IMG/VR virus record: IMGVR_UViG_2690316062_000002
DNA length: 13,326 bases
Direction: 5' to 3' (one strand)
From: a virus
Lineage: Duplodnaviria > Heunggongvirae > Uroviricota > Caudoviricetes
Both the position numbers and the translations under genes were made by a program. Positions 2,563 to 13,326 of the stretch are shown in pieces. The notes under the pieces were generated by a model that was given only the letters and a program-made list of their open reading frames with translations, was not told the DNA's origin and did no database searches. Within the stretch, counting starts at the first letter, position 1, and each line of letters starts with the position of its first letter.

Positions 2563-2816
2563 TATTCCTCCTACAATCAATGTGCAATTACATTTAAACA
2601 CACCTCAATTTGGCCGGACATATAAATATCTAAACCAGAAAAAATCACTTACATAGCGTTACAAACTCTTTAGTCTAAAGGTTCATCGTAAAACATTCCC
2701 CATACTTATCAGTCCGTTCCGCGCCAGGTAGCTCATTGCCTTATCTGGCAACCTGTAATCAGGTTTCCGCTTTTTCAGTTGGCTGGTCGTTTAACCGACA
2801 TAGTTAACCCATTAAT

Positions 2817-3104
2817 CTAGTTGCCGGATGTTGGTGGATTTTCGCGTTTTAGTTGTTCATAAAAGTGCACAGCTTTAACCAATTCTTCTGATGTAACCGG
2901 GACTGGTGAGGCAGTGAATAAGGCCTGAATTTGATAGTTCGGCCTGTCGTTACAATCCTCTTTTTTCGGTACATATTTCCAGTCACCAGACCACTACTTC
3001 CCCTGAAAGTCCGTAACGCCTTTTTTCACGTAGCGATATCGCCATGTCACTGGTTTTGCTTGCCCCGCCGTTTCATGCCCTTCCTGATAATTAATCTCGC
3101 TCAT
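2817..3104 (-). pseudogene. small phage-type ORF interrupted by an in-frame amber codon (TAG at 2996-2994); 36 codons before and 58 open codons after
   Basis: ATG at 3104-3102; MSEINYQEGHETAGQAKPVTWRYRYVKKGVTDFQGK, then TAG, then WSGDWKYVPKKEDCNDRPNYQIQALFTASPVPVTSEELVKAVHFYEQLKRENPPTSGN with no internal start; final stop TAG at 2819-2817. Confidence 0.3.
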
Positions 3105-3292
3105 TCATCGCCCCACTCATCACAATATGCTTCGACCGGAGTTTTTCCCGCTTCATAGTCATCACGCTAGGATTCGACATCAGCAGCACTTCCACCGCGT
3201 AACTCACCATAGTCCATTAATAGTTCATCCCGCTCTTCAAAACTGATGTTATATTTAGCTGAACAAAAATCAGCCACTTTGTTCTTCCTCAT
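3101..3292 (-). pseudogene. small ORF interrupted by an in-frame amber codon (TAG at 3169-3167); the read-through frame ends in a TGA that overlaps the ATG of the next ORF
   Basis: ATG at 3292-3290 (weak RBS); 41 codons, TAG, then 21 open codons RDDYEAGKTPVEAYCDEWGDE ending in TGA at 3103-3101, which forms an ATGA junction with the ATG at 3104. Confidence 0.2.
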
Positions 3293-3341
3293 CGTCTTTT
3301 ATTTCGTGGTATGAGTAATTGCAGTAGTTAAAGAAAATTTC

Positions 3342-3452
3342 TTATGCTCCGTCATGAATTTCATCAGGTGTTGCGTCATCGTCCACTTCGAATACATCCT
3401 CAAAATCTCCACCAGCTATTCCCGTTTCAATAATAATTTTGAACTTTCGCAT
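3342..3452 (-). CDS. hypothetical 36-aa acidic peptide
   Basis: ATG at 3452-3450, stop TAA at 3344-3342; translation MRKFKIIIETGIAGGDFEDVFEVDDDATPDEIHDGA; GGAGG lies 23 nt upstream, separated from the ATG by a GAAA-loop hairpin. Weak support. Confidence 0.15.
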   Translation of the reverse strand: MRKFKIIIETGIAGGDFEDVFEVDDDATPDEIHDGA

Positions 3453-3459
3453 TTCACTA

Positions 3460-3475
3460 CCGCCCTTTCGGGCGG
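3460..3475 (-). other. perfect 6-bp hairpin with GAAA (GNRA) tetraloop on the minus-strand transcript
   Basis: Minus strand reads GGAGG-CCGCCC-GAAA-GGGCGG-UAGUGAA-AUG; no U-tract follows, so it is not a canonical terminator. Confidence 0.4.
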
Positions 3476-3530
3476 CCTCCTGATGTTCTGAGGGTGCAGA
3501 AATCCATCCGGTTAAGGATTAAGTTTTATT

Positions 3531-3570
3531 TACAGAACTGAATTTAATTATTCAGATATACGTATCTGTA
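3531..3570. promoter_or_regulatory. cluster of nested inverted repeats, candidate operator/promoter region
   Basis: TACAGA (3531-3536)/TCTGTA (3565-3570); CTGAAT (3538-3543)/ATTCAG (3550-3555); CAGATA (3553-3558)/TATCTG (3563-3568). Confidence 0.3.
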
Positions 3571-3646
3571 ACCTTACGAATCTACTCACTGGATGCCTCT
3601 TTCATAAAAATAGTCCAGTGGGTTTTATCGTTTTTTCCCTGTTCGT

Positions 3647-3674
3647 TGACAGATAACAGGCTTTCTATCTGTCA
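3647..3674. repeat. 9-bp inverted repeat TGACAGATA / TATCTGTCA with 10-bp spacer
   Basis: Perfect 9-bp arms at 3647-3655 and 3666-3674; shares the CAGATA/TATCTG half-site with the palindrome at 3553-3568. Confidence 0.4.
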
Positions 3675-3714
3675 GTGCCAGAATCTGGCTTACCGGTATT
3701 TGCGTTTCATTCCA

Positions 3715-4071
3715 TTAAAAAATCAGAACGCCGTGCGGCCTCAACACCCGAAAAGCTTCTTTAAATCTCTGTCGCAAATCATCACGCCAGGCATCTTTAT
3801 TCAGCCGTCCATATTTCTTTCCCATCCAGGCGTTATCACCAACACGCTCAAGATGCGGAGGGTCTAATACAACCATCGAAAAAGATGCGTCTGCAAATGA
3901 TAATGCACGAAAATCTGCGATAATGTCAGGGCTGATAATCAAGCGTCTCCCATTGCGTAATGTGTATCCTTCTTTTCTGATATCGCTGAATATCGCCCGT
4001 TTGTCAGACTTATCGAACCAGAACATGCGGCTGCCACAGCACATATCAAGAATGGTTGCCGGTGCACTCAC
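3715..4071 (-). CDS. SAM-dependent N-methyltransferase-like protein (118 aa), possibly truncated
   Basis: GTG start at 4071-4069 overlapping the upstream TGA (GTGA junction); glycine-loop-like ILDMCCGS near the N-terminus and VLDPPH about 58 residues later, the order seen in amino-methyltransferases; 118 aa is short for a complete fold and the frame stays open for 30 codons past the TAA. Confidence 0.55.
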   Translation of the reverse strand: MSAPATILDMCCGSRMFWFDKSDKRAIFSDIRKEGYTLRNGRRLIISPDIIADFRALSFADASFSMVVLDPPHLERVGDNAWMGKKYGRLNKDAWRDDLRQRFKEAFRVLRPHGVLIF

Positions 4072-7743: not shown

Positions 7744-7796
7744 TTTCTGGTGACGTTTGGCGGTATCAGTTTTACTCCGTGACTGCTCTGCCGCCC
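7744..7796 (+). ncRNA. dicF: DicF small regulatory RNA (53 nt)
   Basis: TTTCTGGTGACGTTTGGCGGTATCAGTTTTACTCCGTGACTGCTCTGCCGCCC matches the DicF sequence as I recall it; lies between ydfC and dicB as in the known operon; followed by a T5 tract. Confidence 0.7.
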
Positions 7797-7970: not shown

Positions 7971-8159
7971 ATGAAAACGTTATTACCAAACGTTAATACG
8001 TCTGAAGGTTGTTTTGAAATTGGTGTCACTATCAGTAACCCAGTATTTACTGAAGATGCCATTAACAAGAGAAAACAAGAACGGGAGCTATTAAATAAAA
8101 TATGCATTGTTTCAATGCTGGCTCGTTTACGTCTGATGCCAAAAGGATGTGCACAATGA
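7971..8159 (+). CDS. dicB: DicB, cell-division inhibitor (MinC-dependent), 62 aa
   Basis: ATG at 7971 with GAGGA 8 nt upstream; MKTLLPNVNTSEGCFEIGVTISNPVFTEDAINKRKQERELLNKICIVSMLARLRLMPKGCAQ; the listed ORF from 7866 is a GTG-started extension. Confidence 0.8.
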   Translation: MKTLLPNVNTSEGCFEIGVTISNPVFTEDAINKRKQERELLNKICIVSMLARLRLMPKGCAQ

Positions 8160-8347
8160 ATTCAGCATTTGTGCTTGTTCTGACAGTTTTTCTTGTTTCC
8201 GGAGAGCCAGTTGATATTGCAGTCAGTGTTCACAGGACAATGCAGGAGTGTATGACTGCAGCAACCGAACAGAAAATTCCCGGTAACTGTTACCCGGTCG
8301 ATAAAGTTATTCACCAGGATAATATCGAAATCCCGGCAGGTCTTTAA
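8156..8347 (+). CDS. ydfD: YdfD-like small membrane (lysis-type) protein, 63 aa
   Basis: ATG at 8156 overlaps the dicB stop (ATGA junction); N-terminal hydrophobic segment AFVLVLTVFLVSG. Confidence 0.75.
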   Translation: MNSAFVLVLTVFLVSGEPVDIAVSVHRTMQECMTAATEQKIPGNCYPVDKVIHQDNIEIPAGL

Positions 8348-8439
8348 AACAGTTCCGTAATAAATATCCGGTTTCATTCTTATATGCCAGCAATGGCAGG
8401 GATTTGTTCATCCTTAAATCTGTCATGAGGTTAAAACAA

Positions 8440-10911
8440 ATGAGTAAAGTCTTTATTTGCGCCGCTATTCCTGACGAACTGGCAACAAGGGAAGAAGGCG
8501 CTGTGGCTGTAGCCACAGCCATTGAAGCTGGCGACGAACGCCGTGCTCGAGCAAAATTTCACTGGCAATTCCTGGAACATTATCCGGCTGCTCAGGACTG
8601 CGCTTATAAATTTATTGTCTGCGAGGATAAACCTGGCATACCCCGCCCTGCCCTCGATTCATGGGATGCTGAATATATGCAGGAAAACCGCTGGGATGAG
8701 GTGTCTGCTTCTTTTGTCCCGGTTGAGACTGAATCCGATCCGATGAACGTCACTTTTGACAAGCTGGCCCCTGAAGTACAGAACGCTGTCATGGTTAAGT
8801 TCGACACATGTGAAAACATCACCGTTGATATGGTTATTAGCGCACAGGAATTGTTGCAGGAAGACATGGCAACATTCGACGGACATATCGTTGAAGCGTT
8901 GATGAAAATGCCAGAAGTTAACGCCATGTATCCGGAGCTTAAGTTGCACGCCATTGGGTGGGTTAAGCATAAATGTATTCCTGGTGCTAAATGGCCCGAA
9001 ATTCAGGCAGAGATGCGCATCTGGAAAAAACGTCGCGAAGGTGAACGCAAGGAAACCGGAAAATACACGTCTGTTGTTGATCTCGCCCGCGCCAGAGCCA
9101 ATCAACAGTACACTGAAAATTCAACAGGAAAAATCAGCCCGGTCATTGCTGCCATTCATCGCGAATACAAGCAGACATGGAAAACACTGGATGACGAACT
9201 GGCCTACGCTCTCTGGCCTGGTGATGTGGATGCCGGAAACATTGACGGCAGCATCCATCGCCGGGCAAAAAATGAAGTTATCGACAACGACCGCGAAGAC
9301 TGGAAGCGTATCTCGGCATCAATGCGCAAACAGCCTGATGCCCTTCGCTACGACCGCCAAACTATTTTTGGCCTTGTCCGTGAGCGTCCGATCGACATTC
9401 ACAAAGATCCCGTAGCACTGAACAAATATATCTGCGAATACCTGACGACAAAGGGCGTGTTTGAGAATGAAGAAACAGACCTGGGCACTGTTGATGTTCT
9501 CCAGTCATCAGAAACACAAACTGATGCAGTGGAAACTGAGGTATCTGATATCCCAAAAAATGAAACCGCGCCGGAAGCTGAACCATCTGTAGAGCGTGAG
9601 GGGCCGTTCTATTTCCTCTTCGCAGATAAGGACGGAGAAAAATACGGTCGCGCAAACAAACTTTCTGGTCTGGATAAGGCACTGGCTGCTGGCGCCACTG
9701 AAATCACAAAAGAAGAATATTTTGCCCGAAAAAATGGCACATACACGGGCTTACCGCAAAATGTAGATACCGCTGAAGATTCAGAACAACCAGAGCCGAT
9801 AAAAGTTACCGCTGACGAAGTAAACAAAATTATGCAGGCAGCCAATATCATCCAGCCTGACGCCGATAAGTTGCTTGCTGCATCACGTGGTGAATTTGTT
9901 GAAGGGATTAGTGACCCGAATGATCCGAAATGGGTTAAGGGGATCCAGACCCGCGATTCTGTGAACCAGAACCAGCATGAATCGGAACGGAACTACCAAA
10001 AAGCGGAACAAAACAGCCCAAATGCGTTACAAAACGAGCCAGAAACGAAACAGCCTGAATCAGTGGCGCAACAGGAAGTGGAAAAAGTCTGCACCGCCTG
10101 CGGTCAGACCGGCGGCGGCAACTGCCCTGATTGTGGCGCGGTAATGGGCGACGCAACATACCAGGAAACATTCGATGAAGAGTATCAGGTTGAAGTTCAG
10201 GAAGATGATCCGGAGGAAATGGAAGGCGCTGAACATCCACACAAGGAGAACACTGGCGGCAATCAGCATCACGATAGCGATAATGAAACTGGCGAGACGG
10301 CAGATCACTCAATTAAGGTGAACAGTCATCAAGAAATCACATCCACCAGCAGGACGTGTGACCATCTAATGATCGACCTTGAAACCATGGGAAAAAATCC
10401 TGATGCCCCGATCATCTCAATAGGTGCAATATTTTTCGATCCGCAAACCGGAGATATGGGACCGGAATTTAGTAAGACTATCGATCTGGAAACTGCTGGC
10501 GGAGTCATTGATCGGGACACCATTAAATGGTGGCTTAAGCAATCACGCGAAGCGCAATCTGCCATTATGACCGATGAAATCCCGTTAGATGATGCACTGT
10601 TACAATTGCGGGAATTTATCGACGAAAACTCCGGTGAATTTTTTGTTCAGGTCTGGGGAAATGGAGCCAACTTCGACAACACGATTTTGCGCCGTTCATA
10701 CGAACGGCAGGGGATCCCCTGCCCGTGGCGTTACTACAACGATCGCGATGTACGCACAATCGTTGAGCTGGGGAAAGCCATAGACTTCGATGCCAGAACG
10801 GCTATTCCATTCGAAGGTGAGCGCCATAATGCACTTGATGACGCCCGTTACCAGGCAAAATACGTTTCAGTTATCTGGCAAAAACTGATCCCGAGTCAGG
10901 CTGATTCTTAA
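8440..10911 (+). CDS. large prophage exonuclease (823 aa): N-terminal domain of unknown fold, acidic linkers, C4 zinc ribbon, C-terminal DEDDh-type 3'-5' exonuclease domain
   Basis: ATG at 8440 with GAGG 9 nt upstream (the track ORF starts at an upstream TTG); C-terminal motifs DLETMG, NFDN and HNALDDARY; CTACGQTGGGNCPDCG (C-x2-C-x7-C-x2-C) near nt 10088-10137; corresponds to the gene I recall as the IS2-truncated ydfE in K-12. Confidence 0.8.
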   Translation: MSKVFICAAIPDELATREEGAVAVATAIEAGDERRARAKFHWQFLEHYPAAQDCAYKFIVCEDKPGIPRPALDSWDAEYMQENRWDEVSASFVPVETESDPMNVTFDKLAPEVQNAVMVKFDTCENITVDMVISAQELLQEDMATFDGHIVEALMKMPEVNAMYPELKLHAIGWVKHKCIPGAKWPEIQAEMRIWKKRREGERKETGKYTSVVDLARARANQQYTENSTGKISPVIAAIHREYKQTWKTLDDELAYALWPGDVDAGNIDGSIHRRAKNEVIDNDREDWKRISASMRKQPDALRYDRQTIFGLVRERPIDIHKDPVALNKYICEYLTTKGVFENEETDLGTVDVLQSSETQTDAVETEVSDIPKNETAPEAEPSVEREGPFYFLFADKDGEKYGRANKLSGLDKALAAGATEITKEEYFARKNGTYTGLPQNVDTAEDSEQPEPIKVTADEVNKIMQAANIIQPDADKLLAASRGEFVEGISDPNDPKWVKGIQTRDSVNQNQHESERNYQKAEQNSPNALQNEPETKQPESVAQQEVEKVCTACGQTGGGNCPDCGAVMGDATYQETFDEEYQVEVQEDDPEEMEGAEHPHKENTGGNQHHDSDNETGETADHSIKVNSHQEITSTSRTCDHLMIDLETMGKNPDAPIISIGAIFFDPQTGDMGPEFSKTIDLETAGGVIDRDTIKWWLKQSREAQSAIMTDEIPLDDALLQLREFIDENSGEFFVQVWGNGANFDNTILRRSYERQGIPCPWRYYNDRDVRTIVELGKAIDFDARTAIPFEGERHNALDDARYQAKYVSVIWQKLIPSQADS

Positions 10912-10983: not shown

Positions 10984-11235
10984 ATGAGCGAAGTAATCAT
11001 GATTGTCTCTCCCGGCAAATGGGTATCCGAAGAGCAGTTAATTGCGCTGAAAGGAATAAAAAAAGGTACGTTAAAAAAGGCCCGGGAAAAATCGTTTATG
11101 GAAGGAAGGGAATATAAGCATGTCGCTCATGACGGTATGCCATGGGATAACAGTCCATGCTTTTACAACCTGGAAGAAATTGATCGCTGGATTGAGCGCC
11201 AGGCATCAGCAAGACCAAGACGTCATCTTACTTGA
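10984..11235 (+). CDS. excisionase-like protein (Xis), 83 aa
   Basis: Small basic protein immediately upstream of the integrase; the start is ambiguous (ATG 10984 or 10999), neither with a strong RBS. Confidence 0.55.
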   Translation: MSEVIMIVSPGKWVSEEQLIALKGIKKGTLKKAREKSFMEGREYKHVAHDGMPWDNSPCFYNLEEIDRWIERQASARPRRHLT

Positions 11236-11269: not shown

Positions 11270-12550
11270 ATGAAATATCCGACAGGCGTGGAAAACCATG
11301 GAGGGAAATTACGTATCTGGTTTGTTTATAAAGGCGTAAGAGTCAGGGAAAACCTGGGGGTTCCTGACACAGCAAAAAACAGGCGCGTTGCAGGTGAGCT
11401 ACGCGCCTCTGTTTGTTACGCAATAAAAACTGGTGTTTTCGACTATGCAAAACAGTTTCCCTCCTCACGCAATCTGGAAAAATTTGGTGAGACTCGACAA
11501 GATTTAACCATAAAAAAACTGGCTGAAAAATTTCTGGCACTGAAAGAAACTGAAGTCGCAAAAACATCACTCAACACATACCGTGCCGTCATCAAAAATA
11601 TCCTGAGCATAATCGGTGAAAAAAATCTTGCCTCATCGATTAATAAAGAAAAATTACTGGAGGTTCGTAAAGAGCTACTGACTGGATACCAGATCCCCAA
11701 AAGTAACTATATTGTTACACAACCAGGGAGATCGGCTGTAACTGTAAATAATTACATGACAAATCTTAACGCCGTGTTCCAGTTTGGTGTTGATAACGGT
11801 TACCTGGCAGATAACCCGTTTAAGGGGATCTCGCCATTAAAGGAATCAAGAACCATTCCGGATCCTCTTTCGCGGGAGGAATTCATCCGTCTTATCGATG
11901 CGTGCAGAAATCAGCAAGCCAAAAATTTATGGTGTGTTTCTGTTTATACTGGCGTTCGCCCTGGTGAGCTGTGTGCACTTGGATGGGAGGACATAGATCT
12001 GAAAAATGGAACAATGATGATCAGGAGAAATTTAGCAAAAGACCGTTTCACGGTACCAAAAACACAGGCGGGAACCAATCGGGTCATTCATCTTATTAAG
12101 CCAGCAATCGACGCTCTCCGGAGTCAGATGACATTAACGAGACTGAGCAAAGAGCATATCATTGATGTTCACCTCAGAGAGTATGGCAGAACAGAAAAAC
12201 ATAAATGCACCTTTGTTTTTCAACCTGAAGTGTCAGCGAGAGTAAAAAATTATGGTGACCATTTTACCGTTGACTCAATAAGGCAGATGTGGGACGCAGC
12301 GATAAAACGTGCCGGACTCCGCCATCGAAAATCATATCAGTCGAGACATACTTATGCCTGCTGGTCGCTGACAGCTGGTGCTAATCCGGCATTTATAGCA
12401 AACCAGATGGGCCATGCAGATGCGCAAATGGTATTTCAGGTATACGGAAAATGGATGTCTGAAAACAATAATGCACAGGTAGCTTTGTTAAATACACAGT
12501 TAAGCGAGTTTGCCCCAACCATGCCCCATAACGAAGCAATGAAAAATTAA
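11270..12550 (+). CDS. intQ: phage tyrosine integrase (lambda-type), about 426 aa
   Basis: C-terminal catalytic signature (R in TGVRPGE, HxxR in HTYACW, Y in VFQVYGKW); ATG 11270 preferred over 11255; symbol by synteny with the Qin locus. Confidence 0.85.
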   Translation: MKYPTGVENHGGKLRIWFVYKGVRVRENLGVPDTAKNRRVAGELRASVCYAIKTGVFDYAKQFPSSRNLEKFGETRQDLTIKKLAEKFLALKETEVAKTSLNTYRAVIKNILSIIGEKNLASSINKEKLLEVRKELLTGYQIPKSNYIVTQPGRSAVTVNNYMTNLNAVFQFGVDNGYLADNPFKGISPLKESRTIPDPLSREEFIRLIDACRNQQAKNLWCVSVYTGVRPGELCALGWEDIDLKNGTMMIRRNLAKDRFTVPKTQAGTNRVIHLIKPAIDALRSQMTLTRLSKEHIIDVHLREYGRTEKHKCTFVFQPEVSARVKNYGDHFTVDSIRQMWDAAIKRAGLRHRKSYQSRHTYACWSLTAGANPAFIANQMGHADAQMVFQVYGKWMSENNNAQVALLNTQLSEFAPTMPHNEAMKN

Positions 12551-12737: not shown

Positions 12738-13326
12738 TTATTCAGAAAAAGTGAGTAAGACTTTGCAGCAATGTTTTTGATCCTGTTCAAATAAACTAAT
12801 GGCATCAGCAACATGCTGGAAATCAAACGTATGGGTAATTAATTTTTCTGGTTTAATTAACCCTTTACTTAACCAGTCGATAACGACCGGGAATTTATTT
12901 GCATTTAAGCGTGAAGAGAAAATAGAGAGTTCTTTTCCGGTAATTCCTTGCTGAATCACTTCAGACGGTTCACTGGAGAAACCCATCAATACAATACGTG
13001 CCGCTGGAGAAGCCAGCGTTACGGCCTCTTTCAGGATAGAAGGATGACAAGCCGCATCAATAATTAATGTCGGCTTGATGCCTTTTTCAGTGAAAATCTC
13101 GCCAAGCGGTGTCTGGCTGTTATTAATCGCCCAGTCAGCCCCGCTCTCTTTCGCTTTTTCCAGTCGTTCATCAATGCGATCGGCAACAATCACATTTTTA
13201 ACGTTATAGACGCCTTTTAATACCTGAACGATCGTCAGGCCGATTGGACCGGCACCATAAACCAGAACGGGGTGATGCTGCCAACTTACTGATTTAGTGT
13301 ATGATGGTGTTTTTGAGGTGCTCCAG
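12738..13326 (-). CDS. rspB: Zn-dependent medium-chain dehydrogenase, C-terminal part (N-terminus beyond the window edge)
   Basis: Frame open to the window edge on the minus strand; GAGPIG Rossmann motif encoded near 13250; the rspB symbol comes from recalled K-12 synteny (intQ next to rspB), not from sequence identity. Confidence 0.7.
   Translation of the reverse strand, partial: WSTSKTPSYTKSVSWQHHPVLVYGAGPIGLTIVQVLKGVYNVKNVIVADRIDERLEKAKESGADWAINNSQTPLGEIFTEKGIKPTLIIDAACHPSILKEAVTLASPAARIVLMGFSSEPSEVIQQGITGKELSIFSSRLNANKFPVVIDWLSKGLIKPEKLITHTFDFQHVADAISLFEQDQKHCCKVLLTFSE

Follow-up and report, generated by a model that had tools for sequence, protein, structure and literature searches.

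A RecE-like scaffold carrying a predicted DEDDh exonuclease cassette in the dicB operon of Qin-type prophages of Escherichia coli

The window analysed here, a stretch of 13,326 nucleotides (IMG/VR record IMGVR_UViG_2690316062_000002), is a decayed Qin-type lambdoid prophage adjoining rspB in Escherichia coli. Its last gene before xis and int codes for a putative exonuclease of 823 amino acids and is the full-length counterpart of K-12 ydfE. The protein is a mosaic of three parts: a RecE-like folded amino terminus (residues 1-345), an acidic or polar linker region with a zinc ribbon motif (346-640), which is nearly identical to RecE 455-591, and a DEDDh domain (641-823). Alignments identify residues 1-625 as homologous to RecE 1-591, which is the non-catalytic part of RecE. 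Since both its amino terminus and its ribbon region have this homology, the protein is best described as a RecE relative with an exchanged nuclease cassette, in which only the catalytic part differs. The explanation favoured here, to which we give a combined probability of about 0.4, is that this predicted 3'-5' exonuclease would be an accessory enzyme for phage DNA ends, trimming their 3' tails or flaps, and would not be one half of a two-component recombinase.

The predicted carboxyl-terminal exonuclease domain

Pfam family PF16473 (Rv2179c-like 3'-5' exoribonuclease domain) matches residues 642-813 along positions 2-177 of its 177-position profile (E 2.4e-67, 226.5 bits for a curated cut-off of 27). 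The residues D646, E648, D746, H796 and D801 lie in invariant columns of an alignment with the DexA protein of phage T4 and four family members, and a sequence search of the PDB retrieved the DexA entries 8KEL and 8KEN (E 1.6e-6), with 28% identity between the two domains. The Pfam RNase_T match is weak (21.4 bits, below its cut-off of 24). No PD-(D/E)XK family was matched by Pfam in the protein, while K-12 RecE matches PF12684 at residues 615-850. The sequence-only reading of this DNA had proposed a DEDDh rather than a PD-(D/E)XK carboxyl terminus from the motifs DLE, NFD and H-x4-D, and both the PF16473 match and the presence of all five catalytic residues bear it out. By every sequence criterion applied the protein thus belongs to the PF16473 DEDDh family. 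From this membership and the homology to T4 DexA we infer that the domain is a metal-dependent 3'-5' exonuclease, a biochemical identity that is very probable.

T4 DexA (exonuclease A) and its E. coli homologue EcD belong to the same family, with the catalytic columns conserved. They differ from the present protein in being single-domain enzymes without the 640-residue scaffold, as shown for DexA and presumed for EcD. Rv2179c of Mycobacterium tuberculosis, the founder of PF16473, gives its name to the best-scoring Pfam family, which is matched over the full profile length. It is a free-standing bacterial exoribonuclease of ~170 amino acids, whereas the protein studied here is a phage multidomain protein. 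The host enzymes ExoI, ExoX and RNase T are members of the same DEDDh catalytic superfamily and also trim 3' single strands at DNA ends, the task proposed below; in contrast to the prophage protein they are not phage-encoded and have no RecE-like scaffold, and the RNase_T match lies below cut-off.

The RecE-like scaffold

A BLASTP comparison with K-12 RecE aligned residues 262-625 to RecE 278-591 (E 1e-62). Profile-profile comparison with hhalign, using 20 amino-terminal sequences of the type found here and 25 of the RecE type, aligned residues 18-260 to RecE 15-274, the PF06630 region, with a probability of 99.3% (E 1.7e-20); PF06630 was not detected by Pfam directly in the first 260 residues. 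The similarity stops just ahead of the PD-(D/E)XK domain. An amino-terminal region of about 370 residues that the sequence-only reading left unassigned is therefore RecE-like by these two comparisons, and the alignment with RecE that it called for delimits the shared region as residues 1-625 (RecE 1-591), with the nuclease domain not shared.

The protein and RecE (exonuclease VIII of the Rac prophage, partner of RecT) have in common the whole non-catalytic part, with a remote PF06630-type region, the mid domain, the ribbon and an acidic linker, and the two genes occupy similar places, near xis-int in the leftward early operon. They differ in the nuclease, a 5'-3' PD-(D/E)XK enzyme (PF12684) in RecE and a DEDDh domain here, and no recT follows the present gene. 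The NCBIfam model of RecE, NF007259, scores the protein at 283.8 bits, against a cut-off of 1269, with residues 246-625 aligned to positions 271-602 of the 877 of the profile. On these grounds (absence of a PD-(D/E)XK match, a score below the curated cut-off and no RecT following) the protein is not classified as a RecE.

Relatedness to RecE varies along the scaffold. Protein identity in 30-residue windows is 13-47% upstream of residue ~470, rises to 77-90% in windows 480-509, 540-569 and 570-599, and is 50-57% in windows 510-539 and 600-629. At the DNA level a local alignment gives 86.9% identity between codons 471-622 and codons 451-588 of K-12 recE. This shared block ends ~40 nucleotides before the cassette junction.

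AlphaFold2 run with a 40-sequence alignment predicted residues 1-350 with a mean predicted local distance difference test (pLDDT) of 90. The model orders an alpha/beta subdomain (residues 1-100), a helical subdomain (101-205), a poorly predicted basic linker and a helical mid domain (246-340); block pLDDT is 89-98 for the two amino-terminal subdomains and 92-97 for the mid domain, which is present in nearly all long relatives. Ten basic residues are found within positions 191-220. A single-sequence AlphaFold2 model of the whole protein had a mean pLDDT of 34 and no usable fold. Foldseek searches with the amino-terminal model returned nothing useful from the PDB (best E 0.76) or from BFVD (best E 0.17), and the fold therefore offers no clue on function. 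Homologues carry precomputed matches to Pfam PF27430 and PF27432, whose placement in the amino terminus is assumed.

The mid domain is followed by an acidic and probably flexible linker, judged from its composition, with 10 acidic and no basic residues at positions 341-370 and a short conserved motif, GPFYFLFADKDGEKYGRANKL. A similar motif is found in the relative P0126. The motif C-x2-C-x7-C-x2-C described in the sequence-only reading is present at C551, C554, C562 and C565, and was predicted to form a C4 zinc ribbon. Of the two acidic linkers said to flank it, the one that follows stands, with 13 acidic and no basic residues at positions 571-600; the segment that precedes it (~505-548) is rich in Q, N and E and only mildly acidic. 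The same CxxC-x7-CxxC motif occurs at RecE 518-532. All four cysteines are retained in 68 of 73 full-length homologues, with a variable spacer. Among 64 distant representatives the motif is confined to the cluster of the present protein, and the putative ribbon is for this reason read as a lineage-specific insert common to this protein and E. coli RecE. One 527-residue sequence, P0003, known from a single metagenome assembly, joins residues 1-385 directly to the DEDDh domain without the ~250 residues of linker and ribbon; it is either a natural deletion showing that the linker is dispensable or an assembly error.

One scaffold and three cassettes

A search with residues 1-370 in 1.84 billion cluster representatives found only 171 relatives. 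The long ones, taken as representatives at 50% identity, were mapped with the parts of the present protein and of RecE. Either type of amino terminus, joined to the shared mid domain, is followed by a DEDDh domain, by a RecE-type PD-(D/E)XK nuclease or by a third domain of ~260 amino acids. The latter is found in 22 representatives (P0130, P0131 and P0139 among them), in proteins of ~700-790 amino acids, and has the signature KKSLTDAxKKALSxLGFSADVxLGLYD.

Pfam Rad52_Rad22 matches 13 of 17 members with the third domain weakly (best E 1e-3, 18.8 bits for a cut-off of 20.3). The domain is colinear with both signature motifs of human RAD52, whose sequence was verified (hhalign E 0.009). Several of its stand-alone homologues (40-74% identity) bear the NCBI name 'Rad52/Rad22 family DNA repair protein', and for one of them a PF04098 match is precomputed. 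Sequence and profile searches of the PDB with this cassette gave no match. On the strength of the weak Pfam matches, the RAD52 alignment and the NCBI names, the third domain is read as a probable annealase of the Rad52 family. PHROG 2489 labels the scaffold-Rad52 fusions 'exonuclease', a label that looks carried over from the shared scaffold.

The Rad52-type fusions have the same amino-terminal and mid domains as the present protein and the same early-left place ahead of xis-int. They differ in having an apparent annealase rather than a nuclease as carboxyl terminus and in their neighbours: a Sipho_Gp157 gene comes next in 8 of 8 such loci (L087-L094; for example L087:5989-8337). Four of the 8 also have a Gam homologue, which in L087 lies directly upstream of the fusion gene. 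These fusions may be the 'RecE-2' proteins without a nuclease domain that are mentioned in a survey of lambdoid recombination modules (Zheng et al. 2025, PMC12315714).

The DEDDh cassette also occurs unfused in the same operon position. In E. coli D97-1 (NZ_CM161509.1, L098:3989-4561) a stand-alone PF16473 exonuclease of 190 amino acids, MNNLMIDLETMGKN, is coded after yfdP-yfdQ-yfdR and directly before a PrtN/excisionase-like gene, in a prophage other than the one described here.

Operon position, absence of an annealase gene and Chi sites

The genes on the plus strand of the window follow the order dicA, ydfA, ydfB, ydfC, DicF, dicB, ydfD, exonuclease gene, xis and int. DicF, dicB and ydfD precede the exonuclease gene in one leftward early operon. 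This dicF-dicB-ydfD operon of Qin/Tritos-type lambdoids is controlled by DicA and known in its structure from K-12, and the exonuclease gene is its last gene ahead of xis-int. No sigma-70-like site was found on the plus strand between ydfD and the gene. We infer that the protein is made upon induction or infection and not in the stable lysogen.

Pfam and RefSeq identify no annealase gene between dicB and xis, where only ydfD and the exonuclease gene are found; the lack of a RecT/Bet-like open reading frame (ORF) there had already been noticed from the sequence. A scan of IMG/VR yielded 80 loci with DEDDh fusions, 38 with an amino terminus of the type found here and 42 with one of the RecE type. 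In none of these 80 loci was a homologue of RecT, of the Rad52-like domain, of PD-(D/E)XK nucleases, of the L087 Gam or of gp157 present within 6 kb. The system is not a two-component recombinase, there being no adjacent co-transcribed annealase.

The interval from codon 622, where the recE-like block ends, to codon 646 in DEDDh motif I holds a Chi site, 5'-GCTGGTGG-3' on the minus strand at codons 635-637. Of 74 full-length homologues, 73 have a Chi at the same junction; K-12 recE contains no Chi anywhere. The site could be a trace of the crossover that exchanged the cassettes; alternatively, coding constraint could have preserved it. Over the 80 loci (L007-L086), the strand opposite to the gene has 200 Chi sites and the coding strand 8, with ~11 expected per strand. 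In phage HannyBb the two counts are 5 and 2, where 0.85 per strand would be expected.

DnaQ-like 3'-5' nucleases of lambdoid recombination modules are reported by Zheng et al. (2025). Their 'Tritos' module type (4 phages) has a nuclease, no annealase, no single-stranded DNA-binding protein and no anti-RecBCD function, together with many top-strand Chi sites, and they propose RecBCD as the means of recombination-dependent growth in lambdoids that lack Gam and are rich in Chi. Phage Tritos carries the gene studied here, and the locus and Chi counts above agree with their description; the main text of that survey does not describe the chimera of RecE scaffold and DEDDh domain or its function.

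Integrity and distribution of the gene

An identical RefSeq coding sequence confirms the intact ORF of 823 codons, and PHROG 2082 matches residues 1-822. The RefSeq copies with 100% identity are named 'exonuclease'; other copies are named '3'-5' exonuclease' or '3'-5' exoribonuclease domain-containing protein'. The open frame extends over 8404-10911, with in-frame alternative starts at TTG 8404 and ATG 8425; ATG 8440 is favoured because a GAGG motif lies 9 nucleotides ahead of it. In K-12, ydfE is a pseudogene of 921 nucleotides interrupted by IS2E, in accord with the mention, in the sequence-only reading, of a K-12 gene broken by IS2.

The ratio of non-synonymous to synonymous substitution rates (dN/dS) was computed by region against 30 homologues of 80-99% identity. 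It is 0.09 for residues 1-100, 0.20 for 101-260, 0.17 for 261-345, 0.34 and 0.39 in the linkers (0.34 for 341-470) and 0.24 in the DEDDh domain. Every region is under purifying selection (dN/dS 0.09-0.39).

The full gene was matched in 4800 of 5426 complete E. coli genomes (~88%), at a coverage of at least 80% in 3537 of them, which places it among the most widespread E. coli prophage genes. The DEDDh part is found in 4228 of the 5426 (78%), at 2 places in the median genome and at 8 at most. Complete phage genomes with the gene are those of HannyBb, Tritos, PhiR42_1, mEp460_ev081 and PPompW; the Tritos copy has 99.1% identity and the same order dicF-dicB-ydfD-exo-xis-int. A derivative of E. 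coli B (L097, NZ_CP117043.1, 1616798-1619269) has an intact 823-residue copy, 98.7% identical in the DEDDh part, at the same locus and in the order dicB-ydfD-exo-xis-int(frameshifted)-rspB; K-12 has only the IS2-cut ydfE. That K-12 carries only a broken copy may explain the lack of study of this gene, the literature on ydfE being limited to passing mentions.

Proposed role and alternatives

The favoured explanation combines the probable enzymatic activity with the RecE-like body and the genetic context. Through its scaffold the nuclease would reach the DNA ends or partner proteins that RecE also reaches, a targeting proposed because the same scaffold carries a RecE-type nuclease or a Rad52-family annealase in the relatives. 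Recombination itself would be left to host RecBCD and RecA, as suggested by loci with no annealase and no Gam that are rich in correctly oriented Chi sites. The enzyme would then trim 3' tails or flaps, possibly blunting the ends for the loading of RecBCD. RecBCD needs blunt or nearly blunt ends, which the host single-strand exonucleases ExoI and ExoX help to supply. The role of end trimmer for RecBCD-reliant phages is possible, and more doubtful than the enzymatic activity itself.

Several points weigh against this explanation. The polarity and the substrate, DNA or RNA, are predictions from family membership. The 80 loci are redundant enterobacterial prophages, and their counts of Chi sites and context are not independent. 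Zheng et al. (2025) quote that 3'-5' exonucleases generally inhibit homologous recombination and consider that DnaQ-type genes near int may fall outside the recombination module. The place beside xis also houses lambdoid accessory genes, and in a further E. coli prophage the domain occupies it as a separate gene. The persistence of an intact gene in heavily decayed prophages could point to a benefit for the host rather than for the phage.

This persistence keeps alive an alternative that we consider unlikely, in which the protein serves prophage defence or superinfection exclusion: the DEDDh domain would degrade incoming phage DNA, for instance the hydroxymethylcytosine-containing DNA of T-even phages, in the manner of the 'HREX' protein EcD, and the gene would be retained since the lysogen is protected. 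DicB, coded in the same operon, confers phage resistance, and the wide occurrence of the domain in complete E. coli genomes, at up to 8 places each, fits a defence function, as does its intactness under purifying selection in defective prophages. The precedent is the plasmid-borne EcD, an E. coli DexA homologue reported to cleave DNA with 5-hydroxymethylcytosine (5hmC) and the DNA of T4, to leave unmodified DNA intact and to give protection from T4 (Kang et al. 2025, PMC12153337). According to the same source the largest share of bacterial DexA homologues is in Escherichia and none is in K-12, which fits the loss of the DEDDh part from K-12 ydfE.

EcD is nevertheless a different sequence: its cloning primers encode a MIDTET start, and neither the primer sequences nor this peptide are present in the protein studied here or in any other sequence compared. 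The idea that EcD is a fragment of the present gene is disfavoured, since the primers encode a different amino terminus and match no compared sequence. The domain has only 28% identity to DexA, and keeps an aspartate, D718, at the position of DexA D90, a tetramer-forming residue that is alanine in EcD. DexA S87 aligns to P715, and at 28% identity these assignments could be shifted by one residue; the region around DexA D169, the acidic residue that with a tryptophan serves 5hmC recognition, aligns poorly. Also against a defence function, the gene stands at the end of a repressed early operon and has no promoter-like site of its own, and an intact 823-residue copy is present in E. coli B, on which T-even phages classically grow. 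PADLOC gave only a 12-bit match, which is not meaningful, and the scaffold is one common to recombination proteins.

An RNA substrate, as for the family founder Rv2179c, is still less probable. In lytic growth the enzyme might act on transcripts of the host or the phage, or on short oligonucleotides, by trimming them or breaking them down. The best Pfam family and some RefSeq copies bear an exoribonuclease name, and the gene lies in the operon that encodes the small RNA DicF, which is produced by processing of the dicB-operon transcript. The family name is an annotation and not a test, however; among characterised phage relatives the nearest, T4 DexA, acts as an exonuclease on DNA, and the scaffold is shared with two effectors of DNA recombination.

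It is very improbable that the gene is part of a canonical pair of exonuclease and annealase in which the annealase went unrecognised. Annealases are diverse and often missed, and unassigned small ORFs do lie upstream of the gene in related loci. Yet in the viral loci examined the DEDDh-fusion gene is followed by an excisionase gene of 67-92 codons and then by the integrase gene, and xis-int comes directly after it in the 80 loci. ORFs that precede it on that strand code for short proteins or for a Rha/Ash antirepressor, with no RecT- or Rad52-like match. Two sets of candidates were rejected as hidden annealases: a 284-residue product was identified as the Rha/Ash antirepressor, and products of 200-216 residues have no Pfam match. 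No annealase is listed in the annotation of the complete genomes of Tritos and HannyBb, and 3'-5' resection would not yield the 3' tails used by known annealase systems.

Finally, the defective state of the surrounding prophage might suggest a decaying remnant, and the sequence-only reading had itself raised the risk of an assembly fusion of two genes, but the same intact ORF in thousands of complete genomes and in complete, viable phages, the dN/dS of 0.09-0.39 throughout and the conservation of the catalytic residues and the four cysteines refute both: the gene is neither an artefact nor dead.

Features of the locus

The coordinates of the gene, its parts and its neighbours are given in Table 1. 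The prophage has several defects: a transposase fragment of ISEsa1 (977-1639) and three pseudogenes at ~2683-4026, coding for a hypothetical protein, a DUF7167 protein and an S-adenosylmethionine (SAM) methyltransferase. At the right edge of the window rspB is cut off (12738-13326), and is next to IS1 in the matching genome. The exonuclease gene is intact in this decayed context.

Table 1. Positions in the window of the exonuclease gene, its predicted parts and the neighbouring genes
Feature	Position	Strand	Remarks
DicF small RNA	7745-7796	+	intact; Rfam RF00039, 76.7 bits
dicB	7971-8159	+	Pfam DicB, RefSeq
ydfD	8156-8347	+	Pfam DUF1482, RefSeq
GAGG, Shine-Dalgarno-like	8427-8430	+	9 nucleotides ahead of ATG 8440; read from the sequence
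Exonuclease gene (full-length counterpart of K-12 ydfE)	8440-10911	+	823 amino acids plus stop; RefSeq coding sequence 100% identical
Small alpha/beta subdomain	8440-8739	+	residues 1-100
Helical subdomain	8740-9054	+	residues 101-205; basic helix 185-205 at its end
Helical mid domain	9175-9459	+	residues 246-340; common to all family members including RecE
Acidic, probably flexible linker	9460-9849	+	residues 341-470; motif GPFYFLFADKDGEKYGRANKL; from composition, disorder predicted
DNA block shared with K-12 recE	9850-10305	+	codons 471-622; contains ribbon and acidic linker
Putative zinc ribbon	10090-10134	+	C551-x2-C554-x7-C562-x2-C565; two CxxC knuckles
Chi site	10343-10350	-	5'-GCTGGTGG-3'; codons 635-637
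Predicted DEDDh 3'-5' exonuclease domain	10363-10878	+	residues 642-813; PF16473, DexA/Rv2179c type
Exo I motif	10375-10383	+	D646-L-E648
Exo II motif	10669-10677	+	N744-F-D746
Exo III motif	10825-10842	+	H796-x4-D801; the 'h' of DEDDh
xis (excisionase)	10984-11235	+	Pfam DUF1233, RefSeq
int (integrase)	11270-12550	+	Pfam Arm-DNA-bind_2 and Phage_integrase, RefSeq

Implications for RecE and lambdoid phages

The gene and the 'nuclease-only' module were already known from databases and from the 2025 survey, and the protein is uncharacterised. The literature examined did not contain the end-to-end homology to the non-catalytic part of RecE, the three-way exchange of cassettes with its Rad52-type fusions, or the Chi site at the junction. 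Together, the RecE homology, the cassette exchange and the junction Chi render the function of the RecE amino terminus more testable.

If its action resembles that of EcD, a dormant nuclease against phages would be present in most E. coli strains. As an end trimmer the enzyme may instead be an accessory factor of those lambdoid phages that were recently proposed as a class dependent on host RecBCD and Chi.

We know of no function for the non-catalytic region of RecE. As three different and unrelated effectors are found on this scaffold, it is unlikely to serve the mechanism of any one nuclease, and targeting or partner binding is more likely. A bolder proposal, which we hold improbable as it stands, is that the ~600-residue non-catalytic body of RecE is a portable module for delivery to phage DNA ends, used with three effectors, and that its DEDDh version would be an adaptation of Gam-less, annealase-less and Chi-rich lambdoids, trimming 3' tails for RecBCD loading and recombination at Chi. 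The anatomy of the protein offers a practical way into an old question, what the amino-terminal two-thirds of RecE do.

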